64,000 nt of DNA from Marsupella aquatica (Eukaryota > Plantae > Marchantiophyta), in assembly GCA_973895155.1 (NCBI GenBank), contig OZ316893.1, positions 18,383,836 to 18,447,835 on the forward strand, in the 5' to 3' direction. Positions within the stretch are counted from its first letter, which is position 1; each line of letters opens with the position of its first letter. Below the pieces are notes generated by a model. That model had not been told where the DNA came from, searched no databases, and saw only the letters and a program-made list of their open reading frames with translations. The translations under genes were made by a program, and so were the position numbers. Positions 18,227 to 50,199 of the stretch are shown here, in pieces.

Positions 18227-18534
18227 CACAACTAGATTTTGTTGCGTCGGATGCTAACAATACCTCCTCATAATCATCGTTAATATAATTAACAACTTCC
18301 ATGACTACGTTTATAACTCCATCCAACGTAACGGTGACGTCGGAGAAATCTAAGCGCTGATTGCCCCCATTTTAACATCGTTGGAAACACATTTAAAATT
18401 AATGTCTCTGGATGAGCTGTCCTAAACATCGTTTTGGTCGTCGTTCAATATTAACGACGTCAATGTTTATGTCGTGGAGGGAGCCGTTAAAGTGGTAACG
18501 TTGCTCTGTAGGACGTTCCAATTGAATCAAGCCA

Positions 18535-19296
18535 TGTTAGACGTTGAGTACATTGGTGTGGACGACTTGAATGAGGAGTAGTCCATGCTGACTCGAGTAT
18601 AGCTTGGGTTTTCTACGGGAGGATTTTGGTTTAAGAGTGTTGAGACCAAAGTAGGCTTGCATTTGTGATTTTTGGAGAATGCACTCTTCCTGAGTACAGA
18701 GAAATTGCAGCGTGGGATAGACTTAGTATTCAATCATGGTGCGCAAGTTCTTCAAGGATGTGCATTGTTGCTTCCTTCCACTTGGTGAAGAGGACAAGAC
18801 TATCCGTGGGTTCTTTTGTCGGGGAGGCGTTATTGAGAAGTTGTGTACCTCATAAACAGACTACTTGCTGGCCTATACGTGGAAAGAAGTTGTTGAGCAC
18901 TTCAGTGACTACCATGGATTGATCGAGCACTTTGCAGAGATAGTTCATTTCATTTCTATCCGTTGGGTAGAGTGCTCAATTCTGGCCAACAAACAGTTGG
19001 ATCCAGGAGACTTCCTGCTGCATCTAGGTGATGATCAGATGTTGGATGAGGCGCCCAACCCAGATGATGGGGAGGCATATCCACCTACATTGCCCAAATG
19101 TGAGCTGTCTTCGACTGAGCTTCACATTGTCTTGTATGATTACAAGGAAAGTTGTGCAGCTGAGGTTGAGGCTGAAAGGCTAAAGGCTGGGGAAGAGGTT
19201 GTCTGGAAGAAATGGAACCAGAGACAGAGGCGTGATTCTTACAAAAGAAGGAAGGCAGATGAGGAGTACTACTGGTCTGGTGAAGGAACTCCTTAA
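18535..19296 (+). pseudogene. Unknown accessory ORF carried by the CACTA element (disrupted)
   Basis: Overlapping ORFs 18665-18922 and 18865-19296 read as coding-like and are followed by AATAAA at 19421. No recognised domain. Confidence 0.4.
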
Positions 19297-19811
19297 GTAG
19301 CAACAATCTGGATGTCAATGGATGAGGCAGTTTAGTGATTCGGCTAGGTTATAGTCGCTTTGTGGTGGACATGCAATGTGCTTTGTAGGACCTTTGTATC
19401 TCTATATCATACTGAATCTGAATAAAGACTCCCTCATGTTTTTCATTTTGAATGCATGTGCCAATTAATGTCACCACTGTCATTAACGTCGCGCGGATAT
19501 AGTAATGTTGCAATACACGACGTCTTTTGTTTAATACGTACCCTAAAATGACGTAAGTTAGTTTAACGTCATTTTAAGTGGAGAATCAACGTCGTGTGGA
19601 GTAACATAAACTGGGTCGTGGCTAAATTAACGTCGTTGAAGGCTCAATAAAACAACGTTAATTGGAATTAACGTCTGCCTGGTACGACGTAGTTTGAAGA
19701 TACATTGGTCTACCGAACGTAATAGTCATACAACGACGTTACCCACAGATGCTACAAACCCACATGAAGGTGGCCATAACGAATATATACATGCATTGAA
19801 TACATTTATGG

Positions 19812-25140: not shown

Positions 25141-25740
25141 GGGTATAGCGACCGAGACAACAAACAGGCAAACAACAAATACTTTTCCTGTTTGCCTTAT
25201 GCTGTTACCAGGAAAAAACATCTTGTACCAGGGGAAAGAACACACAATCAGGAGTTTAGAATTGTTTAAGTTGGAGTTAGTCCATTGCGGTGAGGGAGGA
25301 TACCTTGTCATGAATCGCTGAACCACATAATAATTGAACCTCATATCCCAACACAAACAAGGGCGAGCATACATAAAAATGTCAAGGAATGCGCACAAAA
25401 ATGGTAGGTCCCACCACAATCGGCAACAAAATATATGAAAATAATACAAAATTAACGCAGCCCAAAACTTTATGGTATGATATGGTCCAAAATAAAAGCG
25501 AACAACGTCTTGACTAGCGCCTGGCGCTATCTTATCGGTATTTAAGGAAACAAATAGTTGGTGTTGAGAACATCAAGCACAACACGATGATATTTAACGG
25601 TGTAGCCTAAACGAAAAAATTATCAGCGCCTGGCGCTAACAAAACATGACGCAACATAAATAACACTATACCGTTGACATACGACAAAATCAATATAACC
25701 GTTTGGACCAATAATACAACCTACATCATCATGATTCATG

Positions 25741-28700: not shown

Positions 28701-29557
28701 TCGTCAATGAAGGAGCCAACACGATGTTGCCCGCCAAGTTTGGGGGTTCCACCCCACGCCTTCTGGTTCCTCCTTTTCTTCCATCGAAAATAGTCGCAAG
28801 TATTATTCCTACACTCAATGGAACCAATACACATTACTTTACCAAATTCCCAATATTTCTTGGGATGAACATTAGCTGATGTAGGAAATATTCTGGTCCA
28901 GATGTAGCAATCCTTTGACCGGTCCATGTCGCGCAGACGTGACCCCTTTGAAAGAGCTCCCGCAGGAGGCAACTTGAATACAATATTTCCATTGTATTTC
29001 TTTGGCAAACAGCCGACTTGTTCATGGCAGAAGTCCCCAGCCGTGATGAACCTCGAGATTTCATTGGAACCAGTTGACTTGAGAATGGTATCCATTGCAC
29101 TTCTCCGATACACAATGGAATTTTTGGTAAAAACTCCTGTAACCTCTTGTTTAATAGGGGTAACCTCCTATTTAACAATTGTGTGAGGGGGTTTAGCACT
29201 ACGCTCAGGCAAACCAGAAGGTCCATCATCGTCGCTATCTGAAAGCAAGACAACATCAACAAAGGGTTTGGATGAAGATGGGAGATCAGATGCGACTGGT
29301 TTTCGAATGACAATAGAATACCGAATTCTTGCATTCAGGTGCCAAAAACGAATCCCATCATCAACATCAAAAGAAGCAGTGAAATTAGAGGTTTCATCGC
29401 CGTTTCCCTCCAAAATGTCCTCAATGTCGTTCAAATCCAAACCAAAGCGCCCACAGAGATAATTCTCACTAACTTGCTTGTATACGTCATTGGCCGACAA
29501 TGGAATGGATACAAGGTCACCGGTAGACGGACGCGTTAGAACGATTGACCTCGACAT
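25741..29557 (-). pseudogene. A2 transposase gene (GCM-like Zn domain, Mutator-type DDE core, Cys-rich domain, SWIM); intron about 27550-27268; several lesions
   Basis: DCYIWTR...KVMCIGSIECRNNTC...CQFC...CPAR...HMGIHNHP, WVSFDVMKR, MADNAQAGW, DAFHFYQ, SESVH, CSCEDF...PCKHLYW. Confidence 0.85.
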
Positions 29558-30525
29558 TGTAAGATCATCCAACCCAAAAACACTTAGTTCACAATAATGA
29601 ATGACGTCTTCGAATGCACACAATGGTATTCATAGTGAATAATCCGTTTGTCAGAGCCGTTAGAATACGACAGAATCACTACCGGTCGAAAGCACATCTG
29701 ACACAATAAATGTTTTTTGTCGTTATGTCAACGACATTTACACTAATGAGCCTAAGATGTCAGTTTCCGAAGAGCATAATCATGTTTATTAAATCATCTT
29801 AATTGAGTAGCGCCGGGCACTACTCAAACATCCTCACTCCAACATGGACCCAAAATGGTGCAATATATGTTTAGCGCCAGGCGCTACTCAAACCCACACC
29901 CTAAATTGTGGTATTAAACTGGAATATTTTATCCGGGGTTTCAGAATAGATCCTAATGTTTGTAGCTATTTTCCAAATATTATCTAAAATTTTACCAAAA
30001 TGTGCCCATTTAATATTAGCGTCGGGCGCTAATCTAGAACGGTAATCATGATATTCATTTAAGGAAAAATATTCAAAAATTGTATTCATTTTATTTTTTA
30101 TTTTATACTTCAGGGTCAATGTTGTCCTAACTTAGGGAAAATTTAGGGTTTAAATATTGATCGTTTTGGGTAGCGTCGGGCGCTACTATTGACCAATATC
30201 AGATTTGACCTAGGAATATAGATTAAAATCACCAAACTATTCTTTAACGGTCATATTCAACGGTAACTTTAGGTCCCGTAACGTTGAAGATATGCCAACG
30301 GTATTCGAACAACTAATCCAGAATTGACAAGTGGCGCTCAGGAGAATGTCGTAAATAGATATCAATGTAGCGAGGGGATAGTTTAGAGATGATACTCTCC
30401 CCACCTCCCTTGTCCACGGTATTTAGGTTCCGTTTCGGAGGTTCTTCGTGCAAGAATTCTCTAGAAGAAGTACGGTACGAATGAGGTACTCATCACGATC
30501 GTTAAGCACTTCGTGTATGCGAAAC

Positions 30526-33500
30526 ATGGACCCTCTCCCCACCACCTCGCATGGGTATAGTGCTAACGGGCAGAGAGAGCAGATCCATTCCCAGACATCC
30601 GAGTGCTCATTTTCTGGATCTGTTTATAGTCGTCGTGTGACACGGTCTACAGCATCCCAAGATCCCGAAACAGTCGCGGTAGTCACATTTCCAAAGATCA
30701 GGAGAGCGAAGATGGACGATCTCGACACATACGCTGTGGAAGATCGAGGAGAAATGTCACTGACGATGTCCGACATTATCTCCAAGCACGTTATGGTGTT
30801 TGGCAAGGATTTTTGAGGGCACGACAAAGACCCCCCAAGGATTCTAATGTGCCGCTTGGTTCACATGGAAGTTGTCCGCAACTTATAGAAGGGAAGTCCT
30901 TCAATTGAAAAGTTGAAGGACTCTTTTCGTAGCACAGGATACAACTCAAAAATCGGAATGTTGTTCTATGTCTAGCCGACAGATTCGAATGGGAATGTCC
31001 AGACGTGTACTCCAGAAATTCGAGCGACCTGGGACCCGGTGTGGGTGGCCGAGAACGAGAAGTTTGAAGCTGAATGTGCGGCCGATCCAGACTTCATGGT
31101 GTTACAAGATAAGATGTTTTATGTTTTTGACGGTAACCATCGACTTTACGCATGGTCGATCGTTACGAAAGAAAATCCGGAAGATAGCAAGTATCACCCG
31201 CGTGTGCAATGTACTATCTTCAAGGGTGAAAAGGGATCTTTGATTGAGATTGAGGCGGCTATGCATACTGTGAACCAATAAGTCTCTCTTTGAATTTCAC
31301 CTATCCTTATCTTTTATAGTGTAGTTTTTACTAGCGCCTGGCACTATTGACTGACAAATTCTTCTGTAGACTTGGACAGGCCGTGGTGGAACCTTCCTGG
31401 ATACTTGATGCAGACTGAATTAAGAGGATTTTGTCCAACGATCTAGAATACTACAAATCAATCATCGATGGGGCAAACTTCAAGAAGTTTGGGCAGGTGA
31501 TGCAGAAGACTCAAAAAGGATCGTGGTATTCCAAGAAAATGCCTCAAGAAGCACTTCTGTATATCTTATGCGAGAATAAGATTAAATCCTATTCTCGACA
31601 ATTCAAGATGGACATGGAATCGGCTACCGCTCAGGGAAATCCTTGGTCTCAGGAAGAGACATCCAAACGACATGCCGTCATGATGAAAGAAGCAACGAAG
31701 GATTGGGCAATCAAGGTCTCAAAGATCACTCCCTTGTTGAGTCCTGAGTTTGAAGACTTCATGACAACCTGTGTTGAGATGTATCCGATGACAGAGGTGA
31801 ACAAACGCGAGAAGAAACCGGATGCGGTTGTCTATACCATGGATCGTGCCAGGTTATTTATAGCTGTCTCCGCCCTCGACCCCAAATTGAGGAGCACTTT
31901 GTTAGTAGCGCATTGCACGCCAAAGCTCAGGAAGCAGTTCTTTCATCCGCAAAGTGTTAGCGATGACCCTGTGAAGCAGTGGTGCCACACTTGGCAAACT
32001 TGGAATAGCGTGGAGGGAATTGCCATTGGTATGCTGCAGACTGCCCTCCAGCAAATCAGTGAAATAATTCCTTCCAATCGATTGGAGGAATGGAAGTGTG
32101 AGTCTTATGATTCACTCGTTGAAATAGTGTGCAATGATTTCAAAAAATTTGGGGATGCAGTGAAAGGTAAGTTTTTCAATACGATGTGGATGTCCAAGTA
32201 CCCGGACAAGGAAGACTACACACTCAAGAATCAAAAGCGAGCGAAACGATATGTCTATCGTTTCTTCATGCACATGGAGATTGTGAAGCCTAACTATTTT
32301 CGGGATTACCCAACTGCTTTCCAGAATTGGGTCATCTGCGCAGATGGAGACATTTTGGCCAAACTGTATTTGATGTATCCCGTTGAGGGTATACTTCCAC
32401 CGAGGAAATTGTCCGAGTGGGAGAGAATTCACTGCCCTTGGTATCTTGACACCGACAGATGGGATTCTCCTTTTGACGACACTGAGAATGATGCTTTCCA
32501 TAAACTGTCTAAATCCCAAGTTCCTAGACAATTTGTCTCCAACATGAAGCAAGGAATTGAGGGGGACGTCAACTCGTTGACGACTGAGTTGCAAAAAAAA
32601 TGCGAAACCACAGTGGTTCATGTTGATCGAAGCCGAAAACCAAGAGCCAAAGCCAAGGCAGATGCCCCTGTGGCAAGTGCTAGTGCCAAGTCTGCAAAAA
32701 AATGTAAGCTACACCTCCTTCTTCCGACTTCCTTATTTGGTAGCGCCTGGCGCTATCATGTGTCGTAAGTTTAATGTGTCTTATTTACCAAAATTAATGT
32801 GGGTGTTTGGTCAGCGCCTGGCGCTAACACTCTTTCTGTGCTTGACACCGTTTTTTGGTAGGTGGTCGAAAATCTGATGCCGCCACGGATGACACAAAAG
32901 TCGATGCAACACCAGAAGTCTCTGAGGCCAACACTGGTGCCAATCCAGACCCCATCACCCCCGTTGAGAAGGGGAAGGTTATAGTTCCTGTGGATGCTAC
33001 AAGCACAAAGAAGAAGAAGAAAAGGACCATCGATGCCTGGGAATCATCGCGAGATAATGCTTCTGGGGCCGGTATCCAACGGGATGTGGGGACTTTCAAG
33101 ACCAAACTCGGAAGACACTGTATGGTCGAATCAAGCTTGGCAGAATTCATTGATAGTGCATTTAGTAAGGAAGAGAAGCCAAATTGAGTCTCAGATGCTG
33201 AGAAGTGGAGTAAGGATTTGATCAAATCGGGGTGTAGAGATAAAGGAATCACTCGAGGTGGGAAGGAACGATCATTTGGGGTGAATGCGGGTTTCATCTA
33301 TCTGACCGTCGGGTCCCGAAATGGAATGTCACAGATCACACAGCAGCCAAATCATTTTTTCGGGCGATGGACCCTTTCCTTTCCGATGACGGCATGCTCG
33401 CTATCTTATACTCGGATGACCACGATCAGATTTCCCAGGTCATTTCTGCATGTCATCAATCCAAGAAGTTCATGTGCATCAATACGCACAATGTTTTCAT

Positions 33501-34651
33501 GTCTGTCCCAATGTACAGATCCAAGACAGATGTCCAGGTAAATGTTCTCTCTGAGTAGAGCTATACTAGCGCCCGACGCTACTCTTTCTTTCTTAGGAGG
33601 TCTTCTGTCATGAATAAGAGATTTTTAAAATCCAGTTGGTTTGTCAACTTTTGCAGGTCTTCACTCTTAGACTAGATATATTTTGTCGAGTTTCTTTTAA
33701 AGGAAAGGTCCCAAAGGATCCAAGATTCAAGCCGTTATCTAGCGCTGAAGATCCTTCAATCTCAAACCTTATTGGGCTACGATCTTTGAAGGAAGATCAT
33801 TGTCCTGAACTCCATTTTATTGGGAATTCCCGACTACCGGTTGGTTTTATGCAAACTGTCCTTGAACTCTTTACGATACCTAAGGATATTGTAATTGATT
33901 GGACCGTCGGCTCAGGTAGTACGTTCATTGCTGGGGATTACTCGGGCCATTTTGTCATCGGGTTAGAAAATCATCGGGAGTTTGTTGAGACCGCTTCGAG
34001 GATTTTTTTGGATCTCATTTCTCCCAAACCTTTGGAGACACAACCTCCCCCTCCTCAAATAATCGGACAAAAAAAGAAAGATAGACTTAGATCTGTCCTC
34101 AACTTTGATTCAGATGAAGATGATGGGACGCCAGAAGATGATGTTCCCGAGGATGTCAATGATGGCGGGAAAGAGGAAACCCGACATGATGGGTCAACGG
34201 AGGACAGCGAAGAGTCTTCCAAGTAATTTTCGTCTCTCGTAAGCTCCTTTATCCTTTCAATTGTTGGCTAACCATCAATTCCACCGGTTCTATTGGTTAA
34301 GTACTTACTTCCTCTTTCTCTTCCGCTTCTCTTTTGAGCAGGTCAGAATGGAACCAAAGAAAACAGTTTCAACTCCGGAGGAAAGTGGCTCGAAATGTAA
34401 TCATCACTCCCGAGAAGCCATTTGTGTTGCCATCATACGCTGAGAACGTCGCGAGGAAGGTAGAGAAATTTAGAATGCTCTGCTGGGAAACAAAAGGACT
34501 TAGGCTTCTTAGGGGAGTAGACAGGAAGTTCATGAGGAACCCCTACGTAGATGATGTTTCTAGAAGCAAGTATATTGATGATGAGGCAGAGTCGACCGAC
34601 AGATCTCATAGCTCCCAGAATGAGAGCTCAGAATATGACACTGAAGGGTAG
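30526..34651 (+). pseudogene. A2 second gene: ParB/Srx-like domain, helical region, amino-methyltransferase-like domain and acidic C-terminal exon; introns about 31280-31369, 32704-32861, 33538-33656, 34223-34340
   Basis: FYVFDGNHRLYAW; PFLSDDGMLAIL; RLPVGFMQTVLELFTIPKDIVIDWTVGSGSTFIAG..SGHFVIGLE. Collinear homologue at 45380-49816. Confidence 0.75.
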
Positions 34652-37274
34652 CAATTTTCTCCTCTATCAGGTCAAACTTCCTCCCAACTGTACGAGTATG
34701 ACCTTGGTTTTTGTTAGCGCCAGGCGCTATTGAATTTATTAAATATGAATTGAGTTTGAGGGAGGTTGCCCCTTCCATTCAATGGTTAATGTGGTCTTTA
34801 GTAACGTCCTTTGTGTGGGTTCCTCTCCTTGTTTAACTAGCGCCCGACACTCCCCAAAAAACACGTTGGAAGTTTCCGTTTGATATTTGTCGTTTCCGCC
34901 CTAGTGTCATTTGGCTTTCAGTCGGCGACTGGTATCATCAAGAGGACCAATAACGGGAAATCCAAGCCCCTTATAAACATACTATTGTTTCTTTCAAAGT
35001 CCATTGCTCTCATTTTTCTCCTTCTCGATTCCATGGAAGGCTAGTGTATCGACAGCCCACGAGAGCATATGTCAACTTCCGAGTAGATGGTTTCCGTCAA
35101 GATCTAGATCGTCAGGACACTGGGATTGATGATGACTGTCACTCTTCGAGCTAGGACATTGTACGAGGAAGCACCCACCGGGAGTATTAGTGCCTGGCGC
35201 TAGTTACAATTGTACTGGCAACTTTAGTGTTCCTATGTAGCAATATTTGTACATCGAGGACAATATGTTTCACTTAAATAAAAAAGCTCGGGTTTCTTTT
35301 CTTTCAATTTCCCGTTAGAAGTTATGACTCAGATACCTTGGTTAAGTCCTACTTCTGTGCTTTGATATTGAACTTAGACTATTAGTAATGTTTGGTTTCT
35401 ACTTGGATCTCAGCCTGAACATCAATCCTACGTTCTCGTGATTTTCTCCACAAAGCATTAGAAGCGGCCGGCTCTAGTATTTGGCATGTTGGGGCGATTA
35501 ATGTTTCATTATTTTGGGTTTGAACGCCCGGCGCTAGTATTCGGCATGATGCGTTTGTGATTGTTTTGCCTGTAGACTCTCGGCGCTAGTATTTGGCATC
35601 GCATAATTATCAGTATTTTAGGAACGGATTTTTTTAAGTTTGCCACAATACCAGGAGAAATGTGCTCCCAAAATAGGAAATTTTGCTGTTACCAGTTCCT
35701 GTTATAGTTTTCTGTTTGTTGTTTACTGCCTTTTGTAAACACCTCGTGCCGATGATGCCTGCCCCCATCATGGTTCGATGCATAGGTTGCCATGTCCCCT
35801 GTGATCAAATTTACAAAGGCCCCCACAACATATTAAACCCCAAGCATAAACGTATCCCGCTATGTTAACCAAAATAACGTCCATCCACACGACGTTCTTC
35901 TAAAATTAACGTCATTTTTTAGGTTGTGGGGAGGTTGCCGAATTTATTTTACGTCATAATGTACGACGTACTTAATAAGTTAACGTCGTTCGGTATGACA
36001 TAATTATGTGTAATGTCGCCACTAAACCCTACACCCCTGGTTAACATTGTGATTAATGACGTTAAATTAGGGTAACGGCGGGTCTCCAAGGTTCGTGGGC
36101 TACGGTTGTTTTCCTTTAACAAAACATCGGGAAGTGACTCGAATGTGACTCACATTCAACATTCAACACTTCCCCTCTCCCCCTCTCAACCTCCTATCTT
36201 AACAGTGAATGACTATGGCTCATCCAGACTATCTCCCTTCCAGTGGAGATTTTGATGCAGACTTGGTGGCTATGGATGATCCAGGGGAGTTAGAAAAGGT
36301 GCGTAAAGCTATGCAATCAACACATTCGCTGATACATGCTTTCAACCAGAGTTGGAAGTTCTTGGGAGGAAAAGGAAGCAAGGAGTCTCAGTTTCTGGAG
36401 TACCTGGAAAATATAGAGGCCAATGCTCCTGCCCTCGATGATTATGTGGAAACTGAGAATGCAATGCTCTTGGGGGAGGATGGGGGGCCTTTGATCGATG
36501 CTCTCAACTCCTTCCCGTCCCTACTAGATGATGGGTGGGACGATCCTGCCTTCAATGGAATGCAGCCTGATTCTCAGGCACCTAGTGGGACCCCAATCAA
36601 GAGCGTGGTCAGGGTAGCACATGACAGATTCCAGCCTGATCAGGATCGGGACTCTCGCAGGCGGAGGAGGCATCGTGATAGAACACACAAACAGCAATAG
36701 CAGCCTTGATGAGAGAAGACGGAAGGGGAAAGGGAAGGAGTATAGAGATGCAGATCCACACAGTAGAGGTACATACAAAAGAAGAAGAACAGAGGGAGAT
36801 GCAAGGGCAGACAGAAGAGAGAGGTACTCACCTCAACGTGAACATCACTCCCACAAGAAGCGACAACCTTCTCTTGTGCGACCTGTAACTACTGCTGTGA
36901 GTCGAGACAAACTCCCAACCATCACCTTGGATGCGTTTGATGCTAGGCCGGATGTTCTGGATGAGAAGGCCCTCACAAATTGAGTGCAGACGTGTTGTGC
37001 CAAGCACTGTCCTGGTTGGACAACTTGGAAGGATCTCGCGCAGAACCCAAAGAAGTTTCAGCTCCTCCTGAACAATGTGCAAGCTGGGTTTAGGAACGGC
37101 CGTGAAATAGACTACAGGCACATTAGACAGAAGATCGTAGGCTACCTGCAGATCGGAGGTTTAGATGGAGAAACAAGGTTCGAAAAATGAGATGCCCAAG
37201 GACAGAGCAATACCTGAAACCAGAAGGAATGAGCAACGCCGACTTCAAGTTGATCGTGCCTGAGTTGGAAGCAG

Positions 37275-37372
37275 CACCTGACACCTGACACTTGACACCT
37301 AACACCTGACACCTTTGTCCCCCATGTGCACTTGCTTGCCTACAGGCAAGCGAGTGCACATGGGGGACAAAG
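37275..37372. repeat. 7-bp tandem array (CACCTGA-like) followed by a 29-bp-arm hairpin
   Basis: Arms at 37313-37341 and 37344-37372, one mismatch, 2-nt loop. Confidence 0.9.
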
Positions 37373-38169
37373 CTGCTGCAGCCCGCAAATCAAATGGCCG
37401 CATGCGTGTGACCAATTTCTGGGGCCAGGGAGGATGGCGAGGCTTCCTTGCAACCTATGTAAGTCCCCCACCCTCTTCAAAGCACAACTTGTTCATGCTT
37501 CGGCCGCTGCGATGAGAACATTGAATTAACGTCGTTTTTCTCCTCTAACGTCGCAAGTTCTAAATTTTACGTCTAAACCCCCTACGTTCATCCTACCTAA
37601 CGTCGTCTCTCGCGACATTACATTTAATTAACGTTGTTTCTGCATCATTAATATGGCAGTTCCACTCTATACCTTGTCTTGGACGACGTTAATTAGAAAA
37701 TGTCGTTAGGTACATTGTAATTAACGACGATGGTGACGACGTTCTCCAATTCCTGCAGAAACGCAAGTTTGGAGCCAACGTCGAGCCAAGTGAGCAGGAG
37801 CGGTTCTATTCAAAACGCTATGGCCCGGTGGCCCTATGGGCTAAGCTGGACTCTGTCCCCGAGGACCACCCAATGGTAAGTTACATAGTCAGGTTAGGTT
37901 CCTTCTATACTAGGTTTTGCATCCACTATTTGTAGGAGGTAAACTGATCCCTTATGTCATGTCCAAGAGGATTGGAGTCCTCCAGAGGGGTTAGTGGCAT
38001 GGCCCATTGCGGAAGATGAGGAGGCAGATCATGGAGGGGAGGAGCCTGATACGCAGGAGGAGGCCTTAGTAGACTGTGGGCAGGAGGGCAGTTTAGGTAC
38101 ACAGGGCCGGTCATCTTCTAACCTCTCCCCTCCAGTGGAGACTGATAGGGGTCATACCAGCCATAGACG

Positions 38170-38172
<3 letters not shown>

Positions 38173-38208
<36 letters not shown>
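38173..38208. repeat. (GA)n microsatellite within an Arg-Glu coding stretch
   Basis: Direct observation. Confidence 0.9.
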
Positions 38209-38222
<14 letters not shown>

Positions 38223-39104
38223 AGAGAGGGGGAGGGAGGGAGAGACATAGAGAGAGGAAGAGGAGCCGTGTCGAGAGGGATACCACTAGGGGACACAGTG
38301 GCACTAGAGATGTAGTCCCTAGGAGTAGAGGCAAGGGAGCTGCGGAGTTGGTGTCTGGTAGCAGTAGTTCAGACAAGGATCCACTTCGGTACGAGTTGCG
38401 GCCCCGAGGCAAACAGTCGGAGGCACCGCCACGTATTTCTGTTCGTAGGTCTGGACGTGATAGGAGCCGCTCTCAGCGGCATTAGGGTATACCATGCATG
38501 ACTAGGTGGACGTCCACCTGCATTTTGTACATTTTTGGCAAAAACTTTTGACGCCACCCATTTATAGTGGCATTCCGGACTTCATATGTCTATTTTATGT
38601 GTATTCCGTGTGTATATGAACCTAAACCTAAAGCCCACCCAACTAAGGTAGCTTGGAAGGATGTTCCATACAAGATTAATGTTTACCACAAACGGCACTC
38701 CATTCACGTCTCTCCATTCTTGGTACTATTTTCAAACGTTCTCGTTAACACCATTTTTACCAAGCCTCACACGACTTACTACTCATACGTCCTGGACAGA
38801 CTCATCATTAACAAAGTCACAAACTACGTAATCTGACATTAACATCGTTTTAAACGATGTTATCAGCTGATTTCCCTGTTCAATCTGCGTCCAGAATAAC
38901 GTCTTTATTTACGACGTTAATATGTAACGTAGTATGGACCGACATATGTAACGTCATTTTGGACGATGTAAACTGTAACCTTTGTTACTTTGTACAAAAC
39001 GTGCCCTCATTCACGTCGAGTATGTCGCCTTTCTTTAGCAGCAAGGAGACGTCGGGCTTAACGTCTTCATGTAACACGTAAAAAGTCTTGATAATGTAGT
39101 TGTG

Positions 39105-40649
39105 CTTGGTTCTCTTTCTCAAGAGTTGATATAGGGGTTCTGCAATATGAGCAAAGTGCGGAATCCAAATACGATAGAAGACACATCCTCCAAGAAATCT
39201 CCTTACTTCTTGCACTGTGGTGCAATCTCTCATCTTGTTGATTGCATCCACCTTATCGTTGTTTGGTTTGCGGCCATATGTTCCACACATATGCCCTACG
39301 ACCAATATCTCTTTAAGTCCAAACGCAGACTTCTCACCAGAAAGAGTTACTCTTGCTTCTATCAACCGATGTAGAATGGCTTCCACATCTTGCATATGCT
39401 CCCAAATGAACTGCCTCATTCCATCCTTCCTCAATGTCTCATCTTTTTTACCTTCCGCACATCCCTTGATTGGTATGTCATCAAGAAATGTGCGAGTTTT
39501 CTCCGGAATAAATAATTGCAAAATACGATTCATAGCATTTTGCATATGTGCCACTGAGTTTGTTGCTCCTTGTGGAAGGGTACACATCTTCAATAACCCA
39601 AGTGGAGTTCTCATTGTAGTGATGTCTCGGCTTCCTTCTGCAAGCTGAAACTGATCATATCCTGAGTAGAGATCTCCAATTGAATAGACAGCCCTTCCTG
39701 CAAACTCCTCCGCAAATTCATCCACAATTGGACCAGTTCCTACATTCCGAATGGTGGCTCTATTCGGCGGTTGCATATCCTGTATGAACCTTAGCTTCTC
39801 ATTCTTCTTTCGAATTGTAAACCACCGATTGGAGTATGGTGCCTCTGAACTCTCCAAAATCTTGGCTCTCAGCTTCTCTTTTAGTAGCTCCACTAGTTGC
39901 GGTAGCAAAGCTTTAGGAACCGGAATTGGTTTCAAGTCCCATGGTATATGCGGGACTGTAAAAATCACCATTGGTGCTATCTCGCGTGGATTAGCACACC
40001 CAATCTCCTCAATATTGAAGGCAAAAGCCTTCCCATTTCTAGCAATCATCTCTTTGAAGGCATCTTGCTCAACCATGGTAAGCAAGCCATCTCCTCCAAT
40101 CTTGATCTGCTCCAATGTCTCATTTGTGAAGACATGGCCTATTCTCTTGGAATCTCTCAATCTTGGTTCTTCTTGTGCTCTTCGTAGCAATTCTCCTGCT
40201 TCCAAAGGCAATGGAACTACGGCTGGTTGAACCTTTCTATCCACTGTTTTGTACTTTGTGTTGACGTTCACTCCTTCATGGACTAGATGAGATACTAGTT
40301 CATGAAGTTCTCTTCCAATCTCGATTTCTGATTTGCCTTGCTCAATTGACAAAATCACTTGCTCCACAGACTTGCCTTCTCCTTGTTCTTGTAGTATACC
40401 GAGAACTGTCTCGCCTTCTTCAATTTCCTTTGCTGCTTGCATCATACCTTCTCTTCTCCTCAATCTTTTTTGTAGTTTTCTAGTTGCTTCCTTTGTGTGT
40501 AAGAAGGAGACAACCTTATCTGTCCCTATGCCAACACATGAGGATGTGAAACACTTTTCAATACTGATTTCTTCAGCTTGTGATGGGGTTACCCTCTTGG
40601 CGCCTCGATCTCCCACCTTTGTTGTCGGGACGCCTAGTGGAAACCCCAA
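39105..40649 (-). pseudogene. Gypsy pol: reverse transcriptase
   Basis: PYSNRWF...KLRFIQD, DLYSGYDQ, LPQGATNS, FLDDIPIKG, VRRFLG. Confidence 0.92.
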
Positions 40650-42943
40650 GTATTTTTCTTCTCTCGAGCCCTAAGCTCCCACCTATTTCTCTCGTTTCCT
40701 GGCCGAACAGTCGGAAATTGGACAATTCTCATACCATTGCGGCTCTTCACCTTTGCCACATGTATGCCATCATCCAACACCTTAGTCTCCATTCTCAGTT
40801 GTGTGATGAATGGCTGTCCTAAAATGATTGGATATGGTAGACTATCATGGACAAAAATATTAATGGGCTCGATCACATTGCCCACTTTTATCTTCACATC
40901 TGGGCAAGCACCCCACAATGCATTTTTGGTGGCATTGACGGAATTCACCTTCCACTAGATGTCGCAATCCACAACCCACTGCCCATCTTCATACAACTTC
41001 TTTGACATCAGGTTCACTTCTGATCCTGTGTCAATTAATGCACGGACTGGTCCCTCAATCCCCTCCATCTCAATTTCACATTCACTGCACCCTCGGGCCC
41101 AATATGATTCTTGTGTCTCCTCGACCCTGGACGCCAAAGACCCACTTCTTTCTTCACTTGTAGCTTCATAGACTGCAACGGTTTTCTCAACTTGCTCCAA
41201 CTCATCTTCATGGTCCACCTCTAGTTGATAACTTTCTCCGATATCACTTTCATCCTCTTGCGAAAGCTAAAGTGTGTGTGGACCTTCCTTGTAGAATCTC
41301 TTTTTCTTTGCTTTGGACAATATGATGTCCTACACATCTCTTCTCAGACTGCCAAAGAATTCCTCATTAGAGAAACCCTTCACTGCTTGTCTCCAAAACT
41401 TGTTGGCAATCTCTTGCGGATCAAGTTCCATCTCTACCTCTCGGCTCAACATCCATCCCTGGTCTTTTTCTGCTTGCTGACAGTGGTTTGTCAGAATCCT
41501 TTGAACTTGCCACAGTACTTGGACTAGGATCGTGATTCATTGGATCTTTCTCTTCAAACCGTACTTCCTTTCTTCTAAGCGGTCTCTTGACGGCTTCCAC
41601 TCGTTGTTGTTTCTCTCTAGATTGAACTTCCTCTTGTGACTGCGAATCACTCTTCCTCTTTTCATCAACCATGGCTTCCCATGCAGCTCCAACTTCTGCT
41701 GTGATTGAAGTTATGAGTACTGGTGCATCCCAGCCAGTCTTTTGCCGCAAATGCTCCGCCAATCTTCTCTTCTCAACTTCACCTAGCTTCTTCTCGCATA
41801 TTGTCTCACTTTGAGCATTGTAGACATTGGGCTCGAACGCAGCGGTAACCATTGCTGACTCCCTTTCTCTCAAATGCTTCTCCACCAAAGCTTTCATTCC
41901 TCCTTTGTTGTTGTTCAATGGCACAGGTTCACCAGTATCATAGAAAGCAATCTTCTTCATGCCTGGTTCACCAACAAACTTGATCATTTGCTTACGGAGC
42001 GCCATAGACAGCTCTGTGCATTCTCACTTGGTATGATCTTTGCTATCACACCACATACATGAATAGATTCTGCTCTTGCTAGAGCTTCCTCTTTCATGAG
42101 CATCCTCTTGAATGACTTGTTGTCCAAGCACTTTAGTGGTCAGGATTTTTAATCCTTTCATCAACTTGGACAACTCGTCCACCGCATTCTCCTTCTTCTC
42201 AACTCCAGATGTTTTGATGTGAACTTCACTGCCTCGGACTAGTGCCCTTGCTATCCTCGGACTAGTGCCCTTGCTATAGCCTCATCATCCAACTCTCTTT
42301 GCCTTTGTCGTTGGCTTACCCAAAGAACTGCATTTTCAATCTGCTCCCATGTAGCTTTCCCAAATCGTTGAGGATGTAGTATGTCAAGTGCATACTCAAA
42401 CTCATCTCGCAATTTGCTATCTGCAGATCTCAAAAAATATGTAGCTTTCTGTAGCTTGATTATCTCAGCTTCAGTAATTGAAAGCTGATTAATCTTCTTG
42501 TTGAACTCCTTCAACAACTCTTGCGGCCCCAAGTTCTTGTTACCCTCATTGATCCAATCCAAGAACGTGGCTTGTGTCATCTGGTCCGCATCTTGTAGAA
42601 GAAATTCCTCCTTCATCCTTTGCGTGAATGTTTCCCACGCATTCTCTCCTTCGGCCTCCTTGCTCAATGTCTCTACCACCTTCTTGATTTCTGGCTCCAT
42701 CAGTGTTGGGAACTTCATGATTGCGGTCTCCTCATCAAGGTCGTGGAGCTTGACTTCTCTCCAATACATCTTCAGATATTTTGTTACATCCTTCCCGTCA
42801 AATTCCCCTTCATGATCCACCATTGCACGCAAACACTTGGTGATTTGGCTTGCTCGTACACTCTTCTTCTCTTTCTCTTCTTCTTGGGCTTTCATCGCCC
42901 GCATAGCACTCATGACAATTTGTGCAATCTCTTTGGGCCCCAT
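40634..42943 (-). pseudogene. Gypsy gag and aspartic protease (disrupted)
   Basis: FDGKDVTKYL gag motif; zinc knuckle CMWCDSKDH...C near 42060-42015; ALIDTGSEVNLM; IILGQPF. Confidence 0.85.
42232..42277. repeat. 23-bp tandem duplication frameshifting gag
   Basis: CCTCGGACTAGTGCCCTTGCTAT x2. Confidence 0.9.
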
Positions 42944-42999
42944 CTTGCCCTCATTCTCTCTAACTATTCTCTCTACTAATTAGCACAAGCCTTGAGATT

Positions 43000-43017
43000 T
43001 CCCCAGTATGGTCGCCA
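43000..43017 (-). promoter_or_regulatory. Primer binding site, probably tRNA-Arg type
   Basis: TGGCGACCATACTGGGGA lies 4 nt inside the 5' LTR and resembles the TGGCGACTCCACTGGGGA PBS recalled for Ogre/Tat elements. Confidence 0.7.
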
Positions 43018-43021
43018 CTTA

Positions 43022-44389
43022 TGTCCTAGGAATAGTGAGCTCTCAAGAACACGTCGGATGTCTGGCTGCATGTGCTAATTATGCTACTTATCACTTGTAA
43101 GAGACCTCATGCTTAGAACCAATTCCCTTGAGAGCCTTGTCCCCTCCCGGCCATTTCTCAAGTTCCTTGGGTTCCCTGTGTCTCTTGCGATTTTCTCCAG
43201 ATAAGCTGGGTGGGAAGGGCGTACCCTTTTTCGCAAGGACTCCTAAGCACTTTTGGTACCAAGAGACATGTGTGATCTACTCCAGATATTGGCAATAACA
43301 CCAGAGTAGTCGGGGCCAGGCCCATACTTCACAAATCTCTCCTCCAAGTGATAATCTTCTCTATGTGCCTCTATCAACTCTCGGCTATGATCTCTCTTCT
43401 ATTACACTATTATGAACACACTCACATCCCCATCTGTGCATCTATACAATATTAATGGATCCGACGACGCGATAATTGCAGTGTATCCTTCTTCCCCAAA
43501 CTTCAGTGTCAGAACCTGCCTAATATCTACCTTCCTCTTTACTATCAACTTAATGCTCACCGTAGAATGTAAATTCAAAATCTGTGGACTCTCATTCAAA
43601 TCGATATTGACATTCATACTTCCTATATGCTTTCTAACTAAGAGAGGTTCAGCGGCAGAGCCATCCCTACTTGATCACAGGTTCGTGGACATTATATCTA
43701 TGGTATTGGCGGCATAGCCGACCTTGCTAGATTCAAAGTTCCATCTTCAAGGTACTCGAGTGGTGGCAATGCCTTCCATGACCAAGAATCAAGAAACTTA
43801 GAATCCTTCCACCATAGAAACTGGCGGCATAGCCATTCCGTTAGTCCTAGAACCAATGTTCAAGCATTTCTCCAATGCAAATGCACACAATATGCGCTCT
43901 ATGCACTCTCTATCCTCACACTCATACACTTGAAATGCTGGAAAATGGACTCCCCTGGGAGGGCGAACCTCCCTATTATTTATAGTTGGAGCCAGGCCAC
44001 GTTGGTCCCTTTACAAGAGTATCCTAGAAGATACTAGAATTAACTAGAACTTACTAGAACTTATCAGAACTTATTTTTTACCACGGTAAATTCTAGAACT
44101 CACTTTTTACCATGGTAAATTCTAGAACTTACCGGAATTTACCTTTTTACTATGGTAAATACAAGAAATTACTATTTACTAAGGTAGATTCTAGAAGTTA
44201 TTGGAGTTTACCTTTTTACTATGGTAAATTCTAGAAGTTACTATTTACTATGGTAGATCTTGAAAATTACCAAGATTTATAATTTTACTTGGTAAAACCC
44301 AAAATCTCCTTTTTACCACAAAAACCTCTACTTTTATATTTTCACACAAAACCAAGCTATTCTCCATATAATCTAATTCCCTTACGACA
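43022..44389 (-). repeat. Gypsy 5' LTR
   Basis: Direct repeat of 10969-12325. About 30-35 substitutions by eye (mostly transitions) plus small indels, including one of 10 bp. Confidence 0.95.
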
Positions 44390-44835
44390 CCGCCCTCACT
44401 CACTTGCTCTCCAAGACAAAAGATGTCAGTCAGCAACCCTTTCCCTCTGAAAGCGCAGTCATTTTTCACTCCAATATGTTTCAACTTCCGGCAACCCAAA
44501 TTATGGCATTCAAGAATGCCAGCACAACGGACTTTCGACACAGCCGGGCAATGAAACCTTGGCTTCAAATTTGCAGATGTAGTGACGAGTCTAGTCCAAG
44601 GATAGCCGTCCTTCTCTTGATCCATATCTTGGAGACCTCCTCCGCGCCTGACCCCCTCGACTAGAGGAAGTTCAAAAACAACGTTACCATTGTATGTTGA
44701 TGGCAGACTCGAAACCTGACATTCATTCCATTGATTCCCTCTTCTAAATTGTGCAAGTTCACTTGCTCCACTGATATTGAGAAAAGCGTCATAAGCACTC
44801 GTCCGATACACTGTGGTCATGCTATCCCCAGTCAA
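44390..44835 (-). pseudogene. A3 transposase, GCM-like N-half
   Basis: LPSTYNGNVVFELP...DGYPWTRLVTTSAN...KVRCAGILECHNLGC aligns with A2 28349-29113. Confidence 0.82.
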
Positions 44836-45379
44836 TGGTACAAATTACGGTTGACACCTGTACCGTTTTGTATGGATAAGATTATCCCTGTCGTGAAGGT
44901 TGTTCTTCGGGTTTTCCAAAATGTACAACTAGTGGTCTCTGCCAGGAGATTTATGTTATTCCTTCCATTGTACTGTCGATCAGTGTCGATATTCACTATC
45001 GTAACTGTGTAAGGCTTCGTCGGGAGTTCCTAACAGTTTGTATGGCTGTCCTATTTCTCCTAAAGGCGGTGCGGTGTGGACGTTTTTCACGCGTGCAACT
45101 GCTGCAGTCTCCGGACACGACCACTCTTCTTCGAAGGGGTTTATTTCATGGAGTCATCGTTGTCTCCAGAGAGTATTTCTTTGAGAGGATCATTTTAGTT
45201 GAGGGAGTCGACAAGGAGAGAAACCAGGCCAATAGCTAACAAGAAGGCGCTTGTAGTGGGCTTGAGACTCCTAGGCAACACAAGATGGTGACGGCGGTAG
45301 ATGTTGTGGCTCCTGTGTTTGATCTGAGCGCTTCAAAACCTTACACGGTTGTCATAAACCGTCATCTTCACTCGTTCAG

Positions 45380-48300
45380 AGTGAATGAGTTTGGATTTGC
45401 ATTGGCTCCCCCTTGAATTCCTCTTTGCCGGATGAGGAACATGCAGATTGTTTGGTCTTTGCAGAAGGATTCCACTGCAATAGACACATTTGAAGTCCAA
45501 GTTCAGGACGCAGGGTTACATCGAATTGGATGCGCCTCGCTTTTACGTTCAGGTGACAAACGAGGATGGAGAAATCCAGATGTGTACCAATGCCATCTGC
45601 AAAACTTGGGATGATATTTGGGTGTTGCAGAACAAGGAGTTTGAACGCGAATGTGATTCTCATGTTTCTTCCCAGATCCTCAAGGACAAAATGTTCTATG
45701 TTTTTGATGGAAACCACCGATTGTATTCGTGGGGCCAACTGGCGAAAGAGCATCCGGACAATATTAAGTACCAATCCTTGAGTTGTCTGCAAGATTTTCA
45801 AGGGTGAAAAAAACTCTTTTGTTCAGATCGAGTCGGCAATGCACGCATTGAACAGGTGCGAGTTCTCAGGATAATATCTTTCTGAAATTCCTTTTTTACC
45901 ATATCACTTTCAGCTAGCGATCTTGCTAACATGAGAATGTTGTGGCAAGTTAACTCAATGTCATGTAGAGAACTCCTGGGTTTTGGAGGCTGAACGCGTC
46001 CAGAAGATTGTGAACAATGACTTGTCCATTTACAAGGATATCATCAACGCTGAGAATTACAAACTTTTCCAGTAGAAGATGGCAAACGTGCGGAAGGCGG
46101 CCGGGTATTCGAAGAACACGACACTGGATGCCTGCACTTATATTCTATCCACTGCTAACATTGCATCGCAGACCGAGGACCTGAAGAAGAAATTTTATCT
46201 TAAGGAAGCTCAAGGCGAGCCCCTCTCTAAGGCCTCACAAGACTTAGCAATGCGTGAGATGATGAAAGAACAACTCGTTGATTGGAATGTGAAAGTTCCA
46301 AAGATCGGTCCATTACTAAATCCAGAGTTTGGAGACTTTTTCAAGAAATGTGTCAAAATGCATAACTACTGCAAGAATGAGAGAAAGGAGGCCCAGAGAA
46401 CAGATGACAAAGGAAGGGGAAATGTTTCTTGTGGTCTTGATCGAGCTCGATTGTTCACTAATGTGACCTCCCCCACAGCTCCGATGTACACTCCTAGAGG
46501 CACGGTGTCGTCCTAAGCTTCGGAATAAATTCTTTCATCCAGGTCAATTCTCAGATAGTGAGACTAAGCTTTGGCTTCATCGTTGGGCAGTGTGGGAGCA
46601 AGTTGAGTCAATTGCGTCTTCCCTCATGTCCAAAATTGTTGTTGAGGTTATGCCTACTGTCCCTGAGTCGAGGATCCTTACCTCTTTAGAGAAGATAAAA
46701 GCTTCGCTAATCCTTGACATTGAGGAGGATTTTGAGGATTTTCAAACTCGTGTGAAGACTCGTTTCTTCAAGCAGATTTGGCCCCCCAAGACAGGAGAGA
46801 AGATCGAGATTGCATTGTTTCAAAGGAGAGCAAAGAGATACACATATCAATTTTTTGTAGATAGAGAAGTAGCAGACAAATTCTACTGGTGGTCCTACCC
46901 AGCTTGCTTCTCCCCATGGATAGTAGGAGTTAAAGAGGACCCTACAGGTGATAAGTTTGGGGAATATTGTATGTTTCCTTGCGAGGGAAGTGATGCTCCA
47001 AGGAGATTGAGCGAGTGGGAGGTTCTTCACTGTCCATGGTATTTGGACTTGGACAAATGGTCTGTAACCTTTGACACTGCAGAGAAAGCAGCTCTTCACA
47101 TGATCAATCGGGGATTCCTTCCGGAATCTTACATCTCGGAGTCCAGATTGGCACCCATTGACGCTGAAGTTGGTGGTTGCGAGGCAATGGAAAAGGCTTT
47201 TCTTGGTGTAGCTGCCATAGTGGATAGGAGTCAAGCTCAAAAGCCAAGAAAAGGAGCATTGAAGGACACATCCAAAGATGGGTCCCAGATATTGGGAAAA
47301 CCAAGTAAGTCTGTCAATATTTTGTTACTTTTTATTTTCAAGTCTGTATGTGTGTCGAATATATAGACACTAATGGCTTTTGTTTCACAGAGAGGAGGAA
47401 GGGTGCGGCTTTTGAGAGTTTGAAGAGTGGAGCAGATGATGGTGAGGAACCTCAGTCCCTAGATGTCAAAGTTACAACAGAGAGCGCAGTGGATTTAGGA
47501 AGTATAAAGCGTTTGAAACGGAAGCGAAATATCCAGATTCTTTCAGATTGGACGATGAAGAAGTTTCAGTTGCTCAAGGTGTTGCTCGGATGTGTGGTTT
47601 GAAGATGGATGGGCAGAGACATTTCCTCGCTTGCAGCAATTTGACCGACACTGCAAACTCAATCAACGTAAATAAAGTGAGGCCATCTTGGATGGGAGAT
47701 GGAGATGGAGATCGATGGATTACTGGGATGTCGAAGCGTGGAGTGCCCGAACCCTATCGTAATTAATGGAAAGCCTTATGCTGGGATTGAATCACATTTG
47801 GGATTCATTTCTCTTCCAACTGGGCATAGAACACGCGTTACAGACAAAGAGGTCCCATCTTGGAATGTTTGGAGCGAGAAACTGCCGTATTATTTTTCTA
47901 GAGTGATGAGACCAATGCTTTCAGACGACGGATATGTTGTTGTGCTGCACAGCTCGGATTTCAATCACATGAGGCGAATATTTACTGCAGTCGAGCAAAA
48001 AAACAAATTCAAACAAGCATGTTCAGCTATATATTGTTTTGTTGTCTACCCCATTATGGAGAGCAGATATGGATATCGAGGTAATTATCCCTTCAACTTT
48101 TGGAGATGTTTTATACTAGCAATGTCGCTAACAAAATGTTAATTTTCCACTCCTCAACATGATCAGTTTACCTATTATTTTTCCATTTTTTTACTCAGTT
48201 AATGCTAGCGAGCTCGCTAACAAAGTTTTCAATATTTCTAAAGGATTATGGTTCTTTGTTCAGGTGTGCACTCTCATATTAGACATTTTTTGTCATGTGG

Positions 48301-49816
48301 AATTTAATGCTAAGATTCCTAAAGATCCAGCGTATGTTCCTTTGATGTCTTCGGAAGATTGTCGTGCGAGAGTGCATGGTTATCATCGCCCATCACCATG
48401 CCCTGTGCACGCCCGCTAGGATATTATGGTAGTTTAGGTTCATCATTTAGAGGCCATATAGGCAAGCTATAATAGATATGCTTGGTGTTCTCTAAGCAAG
48501 CATTCTCCTCTTAGTAGCACTTTGGGCAATGTTCTTGTAGCAAACCCTGGTTATTCTCAAAGCAAATAGTCTTTGTTAGGAGCACTCCAGAGCCAACATA
48601 CTTAGATTGCTCATTGCACATTCACTTCAGTTCTTCTTATGTCTTAGCTTTAGCATTGCAAGCACTTGGCTATGGCAGCACACTCCATGGCACCTCCACA
48701 CATTTGAGGATTGGCTGTGACTCTTTAGATGCTCCCAGCACATCATGGCATGCTGCTGGTTTTCTTATGTACTACTCACTCTACATGCTACATACGTATT
48801 ACTATACAGGGGTCCACTTTCATGCCCCAACATTTCTTCATCTTGGTGTTAATGGACAACCATGTATCATCTTTCTGGTTTTCTATTTTGTTGGGTTACT
48901 TGGATGCATATGATACATGTCTCGATATCTTATGCTACCAACTCTATATGTCACGACAAGATGCAAGACATAAGTCAATGTTGAGTGTTTGTTACCCTAA
49001 GACTGACCCATGTCCAGCAGCGGCTGTTGCTGGATCAAAAAGGATTTCAATTGGGTTCATGCAAGTCGTGATGGAATTCCTCACAAAGCCCAAAGACATA
49101 GTCCTTGACTGGACTGTGTGTGACGGGAGCTCGTTTTTTGCTAGAGAATACCCCGGGAGGTTTGTTGTCGGTGTTGAGAACAGGGACATTCTCCATTCCT
49201 GTGCTCAAAAAGGTTTAAACAGTGTTCTTGAGAGGCACTCGAGCAAGGCAAAGATGATTAAGGATCAGGCAGCCAAGGGTAATCAAGACGCTGGGTCGGA
49301 TGATGAGTTCACAATTCCAGGAGATGAACAGGCTGGGCCTTCAAGCGAGAAAGACAAATTCAACCTGGAGTAAAGTACTCGGCCTATTCTAATGTCAAAC
49401 TCCCTATTTGGTTTCTGTTGTTTTCTTCATTTTGTTGCTCTTTGTCAACTGATGCCGGTGGTTGCTTCAGTGATAGGAGGGTGGATTGGTTTTCTGAGGA
49501 GAGATTTCGTCTTTGGAAGGAAGTCCAGGAATCCATTGTGGTTACTCTCGAGAAGCCTTTTACTCTTTCGTGCTATGCTGAGACATCGGCAAAGCAGGTT
49601 GATGAAGCTCCTGTGGTCTTGACTTGGGAGGCGAAAGGTCTTCGATCAATGAGAGGTGCTCAAAGATATCTGGATTTTTCAAGGTTTATCAACAATGAGG
49701 CGGGGACAGTCCGTCAATATTTAGATGAGTCTACCGAGTCCACGGAGAGGGAGACCAGTAGCGATCCTAGTAGTAGTGACATATCTGATGATTCAGAGGA
49801 TGAAGTTTATGACTGA
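45380..49816 (+). pseudogene. A3 second gene (ParB-like + methyltransferase-like), disrupted
   Basis: MFYVFDGNHRLYSW, RRLSEWEVLHCPWYLD, RPMLSDDGYVVVL, RISIGFMQVVMEFLTKPKDIVLDWTVCDGSS..GRFVVGVE. Introns fall at equivalent positions to A2. Confidence 0.75.
48360..48958. mobile_element. Solo LTR (599 bp)
   Basis: TGTCGTG...CACGACA with 4-bp TSD AGAT. Removal restores SSED-ARHKSM. Confidence 0.88.
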
Positions 49817-50199
49817 ACAAGTAGGAATTTGTAGGACTGGATGTACTGGTAGAAGTCGACTCTTACAATTTTGCTGTGTTGGAGTTTTTTGGCAATCCAC
49901 ACTTTCAATGTAAAGAGGGATTATATTATGATGGAAGTGTCTACTTGTGGTGATCTTTTTTCGAAAAAACAATGTGTGTGGCTCAAGTATGGAATGGATA
50001 TGACAATCATGCATGGTTTTTCCTTGTGATTTTCTTTTGATTACTGTAAGAGGTGGAAAACTGAGATATTTTGGCATTGTTTTCATGGAATGTATTAGGA
50101 CTTTGAAGGCCAAAAATGCCTTGCTAACAATACTGACTCGCTAGAAAAATCTCCTGTTTCCTTGCACCATACAATTCCTCCCATGATGTGCTGGGAGCA

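Follow-up and report, generated by a model that had tools for sequence, protein, structure and literature searches.

A lineage-specific palindrome accompanies a ParB-like accessory gene in putative Mutator-like elements of the liverwort Marsupella aquatica

We analysed a stretch of 64,000 nucleotides (nt) from the liverwort Marsupella aquatica (assembly GCA_973895155.1, contig OZ316893.1, positions 18,383,836 to 18,447,835 of the forward strand), referred to below at its full length as the window and numbered from its first letter. The window is a nest of eukaryotic repeats with three copies (E1, E2 and E3) of one DNA element, whose two genes are divergently oriented: gene A, predicted to encode a ParB-like and a methyltransferase-like domain, and the transposase-like gene B on the opposite strand. 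The non-coding parts of these copies contain short palindromes, which are 14 base pairs (bp) long in E3 and 15 bp in E1 and E2, and related metagenome loci carry palindromes of their own whose class follows the clade of the ParB domain. That the palindrome is a functional, lineage-specific site is well supported. We also consider it rather likely that the 14-bp palindrome represents the version of a lineage-specific word used by the E3 subfamily, and a candidate loading site for the gene A protein, which would mark or shield copies of its own lineage.

Two palindrome forms are partitioned between the element copies

An original prediction, made from the sequence of the window, had described a divergent palindrome in what it called copy A3, which is gene A of element E3. 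Searches with TAGCGA-NN-TCGCTA returned one exact match in the window and four sites at ≤1 mismatch (9769, 45915, 48117 and 48206, all of them sites that had been predicted), against 0 exact and 0.025 at ≤1 mismatch expected from 40 order-3 Markov simulations. The 15-bp form, TAGCGC-NNN-GCGCTA, is present at 19 sites with ≤1 mismatch (0.125 expected) and at 20 with ≤2, and these 20 all fall within 4548-7216 or 25515-35522. The partition is strict, with 4/4 of the near-exact 14-bp sites in E3, 20/20 of the 15-bp sites in or beside E1 and E2, and no 15-bp site in E3. When 5-bp arms were searched at ≤1 mismatch, length 14 gave 5 matches and length 15 gave 19, and the remaining lengths between 10 and 21 gave 0-2. 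The prediction that length had changed together at all sites was therefore borne out, since E3 has only the 14-bp form and E1 and E2 only the 15-bp form, and random mixing of the two across copies was not seen. A palindrome of fixed length is also a trait of ParB/parS systems.

Within gene A of E3 one palindrome lies in intron 1 (45915..45928), its right arm continuing into GCTAAC some 21 nt upstream of the probable 3' splice site, and two lie in intron 3: 48117..48130, where an A at 48121 replaces the G that would give perfect arms, and 48206..48219, whose arms are perfect. The fourth is in an intron of the gene B transposase (9769..9782), which also holds, as had been proposed, a degenerate second site (9681..9694); it keeps one arm intact and is 2 bases short. 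Two half-sites near the 3' end of E3 (50121..50143, at 50121 and 50138 on the forward strand, facing the same way) are present as described earlier, but their weight as sites was not upheld: the window contains 68 6-mers of this type and the pair is not distinguishable from chance. Rejected as candidates were a 14-mer at 13776, which is off consensus and inside the integrase frame of a long terminal repeat (LTR) element, and 15-mers at 11661 and 43715, which are off consensus and in the LTRs of that element.

Across the cores of the 15-bp sites 16 of 280 positions are changed, and 11 of these 16 changes are C>T or G>A. The flanks of the same sites show a mean identity of 0.32, compared with 0.29 for random non-coding pairs, and Tandem Repeats Finder placed an array over none of the window's sites. 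Since the flanks are unrelated and no tandem array covers the sites, simple repeat amplification does not explain them.

With exon limits drawn by hand from protein homology, 0/25 sites fall in exons, though exons make up 74% of the elements. The twenty 15-bp sites are divided between introns (8) and intergenic or terminal DNA (12). As to the earlier claim of equivalent intron positions, the intron itself holds up: for 3/4 of the site-bearing introns of E2, the E3 ortholog also contains sites, placed comparably far from the splice sites; in intron 2 of gene A, E2 has two sites and E3 none. Base-level homology of these sites cannot be claimed, because the E2 and E3 introns, with sites masked, align no better than shuffles (94, 146 and 169 of 200 shuffles score as high). 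The transposase introns of E1 and E2 barely align (8/200 shuffles as high), yet they carry the same 15-bp word.

E3-like sequence was found in six public runs under three organism codes, and in four of these runs gene A of E3 was represented by 77-1993 contigs per run, so the E3 subfamily has many copies. In a comparison covering 47770-48280, and among 40 of 160 rows, the G at 48121 that gives perfect arms accounts for 81% of depth in run X1 (8 contigs), 90% in X3 (6 contigs) and 45% in X5 (1 contig). Further 14-bp sites occur in loose contig ends of X4 and X5. Judged from these contig sequences, the 14-bp form is a subfamily trait shared by related copies.

Palindrome class follows the ParB-domain tree in metagenome loci

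Although an automatic-pattern search for related loci in metagenome or viral contigs gave no match, a codon pattern for the DGNHR region of gene A retrieved 53 metagenome loci, 30 of them distinct. These loci are decayed and mostly of lower GC content; gene B lies upstream in divergent orientation in five distinct loci, and methyltransferase exons gave 2 weak matches. The window's motifs are carried by none of the 30 distinct loci; across 268 kb, TAGC..GCTA words show no enrichment there, with one 14-mer and one 15-mer. Palindromes of their own are present in 19/30, and their arrays are concentrated in the region 0.6-2.8 kb upstream of the ParB exon. De novo searches found AGGTGCC-N6-GGCACCT in 17 copies in locus L029 and also in L005, and CATATG-N8-CATATG in 10 copies in L021. 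A 16-bp core, CTYTCGGCGCCGARAG, occurs in 16 loci at 67 sites, whereas 5 shuffled controls gave 0-1 each. The two bases that flank this core are AA in 37/42 arms of one clade (and in 7/8 in L013), TT in 28/32 arms of a second clade and TA in 45/48 of a third; both arms agree in 52/67 sites, such that the changes are mirror-symmetric. A candidate AAGCTT-type class had 0 matches and was rejected.

The ParB-domain tree comprises 44 rows, of which 20 were labelled with 7 motif classes. Motif class changes 6 times on this tree, which is the minimum, whereas shuffled labels gave a mean of 12.4 and 0/200 shuffles were as low. E2 and E3 are sister to each other, with E3 on a long branch. Motif type thus tracks protein clade both in the window and among the metagenome loci, in line with the original prediction.

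Several observations nevertheless weigh against reading this pattern as co-evolution of the site with a ParB-like binder. Concordance with the tree is expected from descent alone, and the change count shows clustering rather than co-evolution because kin share labels; the motif classes were moreover partly defined on the same loci, with a tie in L016 counted as TT and a tie in L037 left unlabelled. Eleven of the 30 loci lack an array (6 are contigs of 1-3 kb, and L018, L051, L034, L011 and L032 are longer), one TT-clade intron site keeps a TA arm in 3 loci, a 21-bp palindrome occurs across clades, and another, of 20 bp, is common to sister clades. Arrays in several loci are regularly spaced (about 50 or 100-140 bp), so repeat turnover could homogenise the sites. 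Run X4, in the same 40 of 160 rows, has 0% G at 48121 and reads the window's A. The helical bundle after the ParB domain matched no ParB helix-turn-helix, as judged within a 1025-residue model and not folded alone. Finally, E2 and E3 share 46% identity across the ParB domain, 38-39% across the middle region and 39-40% across the methyltransferase part, compared with 39-61% for the transposase, such that no gene A domain stands out, and E1, whose gene A is not in the window, ties the 15-bp form only to a transposase. For these two reasons the binder cannot be assigned from the window, and the search for a domain that co-varies with the motif, set out in the original prediction, singled out none. 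What remains of the proposed co-evolution of site and binding protein is the lineage-specific functional site, and not co-evolution with one particular binder in the window; that the palindrome co-evolves with the ParB-like protein is what we infer.

Other inverted repeats were seen in the metagenome loci. The 21-bp palindrome GGGGAAG-N7-CTTCCCC is present in L003, L011, L013, L023, L036, L037, L044 and L019, across clades and sometimes in the intron directly after the ParB exon, and may represent another mobile element or an additional binding site. The 20-bp palindrome has a GAGCTC-like core and alternates with the main one in L015, L019, L023, L003 and L012, 0.7-1.8 kb upstream of the ParB exon; GAGCTC is also the centre of the best site of E3. 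Spaced inverted repeats of the forms TTGCGA-N11-TCGCAA (L046, +3450 to +4070 from the ParB motif) and AATACC-N8-GGTATT (L011, -6450 to -5100) perhaps derive from neighbouring elements.

Predicted products of genes A and B

The first exon of gene A encodes DGNHR, invariant in the window copies and in 7 homolog rows, and six homologs share the intron at which this exon ends. A profile search with this ParB exon retrieved 657 relatives, and of the ten longer ones that were checked, all annotated proteins, 7 come from Riccia sorocarpa and 3 from Adiantum. A Riccia protein of 1207 amino acids (aa) aligns along gene A of E2 and E3 at 25-36% identity; the link to Riccia rests on the ParB exon, since the E2 middle exon as query found no homolog of longer or similar length. 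Neither the ParB exon nor any of 15 longer homologs could be placed in a Pfam family, sequence searches of the PDB gave no match, and Foldseek alone gave none at E<=0.001 for the Riccia N-terminal domain. An AlphaFold model of the Riccia homolog reached a predicted local distance difference test score (pLDDT) of about 90 over its first 170 modelled residues; a first structure model was poor (pLDDT 53.6) and went unused. The modelled N-terminal domain superposes on ParB (7bm8) with Z 8.6 and a root-mean-square deviation of 2.5 over 99 aligned residues, ParB, Noc and KorB occupy ranks 1-11 among its Foldseek candidates, and in a wide structure comparison (48,161 chains) the ParB-like PadC and KorB rank first (Z 6.9 and 6.8). 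The model supports a predicted ParB/Srx-type fold with a GxxR-type motif for the N-terminal domain of gene A.

Towards the C-terminus, the E2 exon at 33618-34223 matches Pfam N6_N4_Mtase at 31.8 bits (cut-off 26.7), and PHROG and NCBIfam searches likewise gave methyltransferase matches for gene A. Motif I, which binds S-adenosylmethionine, lies C-terminal to the catalytic motif (order IV before I), as in the beta-class family PF01555, and E2, E3 and Riccia have all retained the motif I region typical of beta-class amino-methyltransferases. The domain is predicted to be methyltransferase-like, with a non-canonical catalytic motif; the corresponding part of the Riccia model is of low confidence, and the window fragments are misplaced in its alignment. 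No ParA-like gene was found among the annotations of E2.

For gene B there was no Pfam or NCBIfam transposase match, and the SWIM finger match was weak (E=0.18). By eye we recognised D..D, (C/D)xxH and E motifs, which we take to be those of Mutator-like elements (MULEs). The 9-bp direct repeat flanking E2 (one copy, with an uncertain boundary) fits the 8-11 bp given for MULE target site duplications in the parts of PMC6446971 that we could consult. On the basis of these motifs and this repeat we call gene B Mutator-like.

A candidate loading site and its alternatives

We propose that a dimer of the gene A protein would bind the two arms of the palindrome, the binder being the product of gene A rather than the transposase, and that the protein perhaps spreads from these sites as ParB does. 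It would then change or shield the methylation state of copies of its own lineage, and when its specificity drifted new sites would arise and old ones be lost under selection. The outcome would be escape from host silencing without release of other families, as for VANC. Gene A is favoured as the binder because the termini of the elements bear a repeated word different from the palindrome, which leaves the transposase with a separate target, because recognition of palindromes, and shifts of specificity through minor alterations of the site, are known from ParB proteins, and because inverted-repeat arrays have been reported next to ParB-like genes of another, unrelated superfamily of transposons. 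In the three window copies the system is dead, since E1, E2 and E3 are all pseudogenes with stops and frameshifts.

Although it is unlikely in full, a more elaborate version can be imagined, in which a eukaryotic ParB clamp operates in the MULEs of seed-free land plants: it would load at the palindrome and slide in a cytidine triphosphate (CTP)-dependent manner, its methyltransferase-like domain would lay down N4-methylcytosine (4mC) or N6-methyladenine (6mA) or block 5-methylcytosine (5mC), and the palindrome variants would act as orthogonal specificity groups.

We think it improbable that the palindromes are instead bound by the transposase, activating or synapsing its own subfamily with gene A as a passenger. 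E1 and E2 do share the 15-bp form and have transposases closer to each other (58-77% identity in three of four pieces and 42% in the fourth) than those of E2 and E3, and the AtMu1 transposase activates cognate copies sequence-specifically according to a 2026 preprint (10.64898/2026.08.24.746577). Yet the termini have a separate word, the locus arrays cluster upstream of the ParB exon, and the palindrome arrays reported beside ParB-like genes of the unrelated Plavaka superfamily point to the accessory gene.

Less probable again is neutral concerted evolution, whereby a short inverted repeat would be homogenised within the element by slippage or conversion with no need of a binder. Site spacing is indeed regular in loci that include L029 (about 138 bp) and L026 (about 51 bp), and the C>T and G>A changes in the 15-bp sites of the window show that these decay like the rest of the dead elements. 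On the other hand, the window sites combine near-identical cores with unrelated flanks, they sit kilobases apart in separate introns of two genes, and the same word persists in E1 and E2 where the transposase introns barely align.

It is harder still to credit the palindromes as direct substrates of the methyltransferase domain, with the methylated site as the signal. The retained beta-class motif I region and the C/G-rich cores of all sites would suit this idea. The canonical beta-class catalytic motif, however, is (D/N/S)PP(Y/F/W), whereas four homologs have DLPT, DMPS, DMPT and DVPF (D[LMV]P, then T/S/F-G), E3 has SLPT followed by G, and E2 has lost the motif; 14-22 bp is also long for a methyltransferase target.

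Least probable of all are RNA hairpins or branch-point elements regulating intron splicing: 3/5 E3 sites end in GCTAAC, which resembles the branch-point consensus, the site furthest 3' in each intron precedes the 3' splice site by about 21-56 nt and the 9769 site with its flanks folds at -15.9 kcal/mol, but 12/20 15-bp sites are outside introns, the spacer length is fixed per element as hairpins would not require, the 14-bp sites fold with only five pairs and the words of other clades lack CTAAC. The palindromes may double as branch points in some introns.

Relation to known systems

The closest counterpart by description is Sola1-1_Ec32 of the brown alga Ectocarpus, for which the parts of PMC12477816 covered here report an accessory protein of 1104 aa with ParB-like and N4C/N6A methyltransferase domains and propose self-binding and self-modification. 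Gene A of E2 and E3 has the same domain order, a similar size (the Riccia homolog is about 1200 aa) and the same position opposite to a DDE transposase, the likeness being one of description. The host there is a brown alga and the transposase of Sola1 type, whereas here they are a land plant and Mutator-like; neither a binding motif nor subfamily specificity is described in those parts. In the red alga Bostrychia, PAG3 of Plavaka is a ParB-like gene beside inverted-repeat arrays that were proposed as binding sites (10.1101/2025.02.11.637652, main text). It shares with gene A the ParB-like N-terminal domain, the role of transposon accessory gene and the adjoining inverted repeats, but is fused to a putative 2-oxoglutarate (2OG) oxygenase with the methylase as a separate gene, whereas gene A is a methyltransferase-like fusion; the Plavaka repeats are tandem arrays, and those of the window are dispersed in introns. 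A motif-versus-tree test is absent from that main text ('co-evol' and 'palindrom' have 0 matches), and the supplement may show family-specific repeats.

In Arabidopsis VANDAL elements, as far as the sections of PMC5735166 available to us describe, VANC proteins bind 8-9-bp non-palindromic motifs amplified as tandem repeats, demethylation has been shown, and each VANC lets its own family escape silencing without releasing others. Our elements resemble these in being Mutator-like, in their weak termini and accessory protein, and in having short motifs that differ by family in introns, intergenic and terminal regions, a trait present in E1, E2 and E3 as well as in the metagenome loci. They differ in having palindromes of 14-22 bp and a protein with predicted ParB and methyltransferase folds; gene A is accordingly not of VANC type, and it matched no plant mobile-domain family in Pfam, with no direct VANC comparison made. 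For bacterial ParB/parS and Noc/NBS, a site that differs in two bases constitutes a specificity group of its own (PMC7333895, in the portion seen). Gene A has the ParB N-terminal fold with a GxxR-type motif, but unlike those proteins is eukaryotic, intron-containing, fused to a methyltransferase-like domain and without an annotated ParA partner, and a segregation role is not expected. A 4mC methyltransferase is present in Marchantia (10.1101/2021.02.12.428880, as partially consulted).

ParB-methyltransferase accessory genes and nearby inverted repeats in algal transposons are already known, as is VANC/motif co-evolution; what is new is a version in land plants, carried by Mutator-like elements, whose palindrome code changes clade by clade. 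In the literature within reach, which excluded most subscription journals and bioRxiv supplements, we found no report of such elements in land plants or of motif-versus-clade tracking. Two recent papers propose self-binding or self-modifying ParB-like accessory proteins in algal transposons, an idea untried there, and the matched protein-site pairs, small mirror-symmetric site steps and apparently full-length liverwort homologs described here make it directly testable. If true, this would be a second, independently built system of self-recognition and anti-silencing beside VANC; a ParB clamp would be operating in the chromatin of eukaryotes, and bacterial-type DNA methyltransferases might have spread in land plants by such a route. 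Were the clamp reading to hold, the palindrome variants would resemble plasmid incompatibility groups and constitute a natural library of programmable protein-site pairs.

Anatomy of the elements and their surroundings

Gene A of E3 is a pseudogene on the forward strand (45290..49812, ends approximate) with stops and frameshifts. Its ParB-fold domain with DGNHR lies at about 45440-45856, a helical middle region follows, and the beta-class amino-methyltransferase-like domain is at about 47770-49230. Gene B of E3, on the reverse strand, is in two parts (44394..44844 and 9140..10968, truncated near 9140) on either side of an LTR retrotransposon (10969..44389) whose nested insertions include E2. 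The LTR pair (10969 and 43022) is 96.6% identical, with the 4-bp sequence CCGC on both outer flanks of the insertion of about 33 kb; once the insertion and one CCGC are taken out, the frame of gene B reads through and its length matches E2. Because this insertion split the transposase gene, the sites at 9681 and 9769 and those at 45915-48219 are parts of one element; the former pair, correctly predicted as sites, does not denote a separate copy. The interval between genes B and A appears shorter in E3 than in E2. A further insertion of about 600 bp in gene A of E3 (48354..48958) is skipped by contigs of related copies, and a 118-bp part of it is found again, in inverted orientation, close to where E3 ends (50181-50298). 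Two related pyrimidine-rich repeats in the same orientation flank E3 (7500-9004 and 51000-52484).

E2 is the most complete copy (25142..35745), with 15 sites of the 15-bp form, gene B on the reverse strand at about 25744-29629 and gene A on the forward strand at about 30526-34648. Its 9-bp direct repeat lies at 25133-25141 and 35746-35754. DUF4218 and transposase-associated domains at 20538-21137 and 24538-25572 mark a CACTA-like element, the apparent host of the E2 insertion. E1 is partial (3428..7196, forward strand), comprising the 3' part of gene B and a terminus that shows homology to the E2 left end, with four 15-bp sites. A fifth such site (7216-7230) lies about 20 bp beyond the putative end of E1, which might be placed beside or into another copy or have a misplaced end. 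The same four letters adjoin the homologous terminus in E2 (25138-25141) and E1 (7197-7200), so that either the terminus is 4 bp longer, the duplication then being 5 bp, or there is a target preference; the boundary of E2 is to that extent uncertain. Two copies resembling long interspersed nuclear elements (LINEs; 1-3443 and 14152-17596) are 99.65% identical with a CG observed/expected ratio of 0.10, and one of them truncates E1. Near the far end of the window, at 62627-62716, a 30-bp tandem repeat occurs in 3 copies with internal inverted arms.

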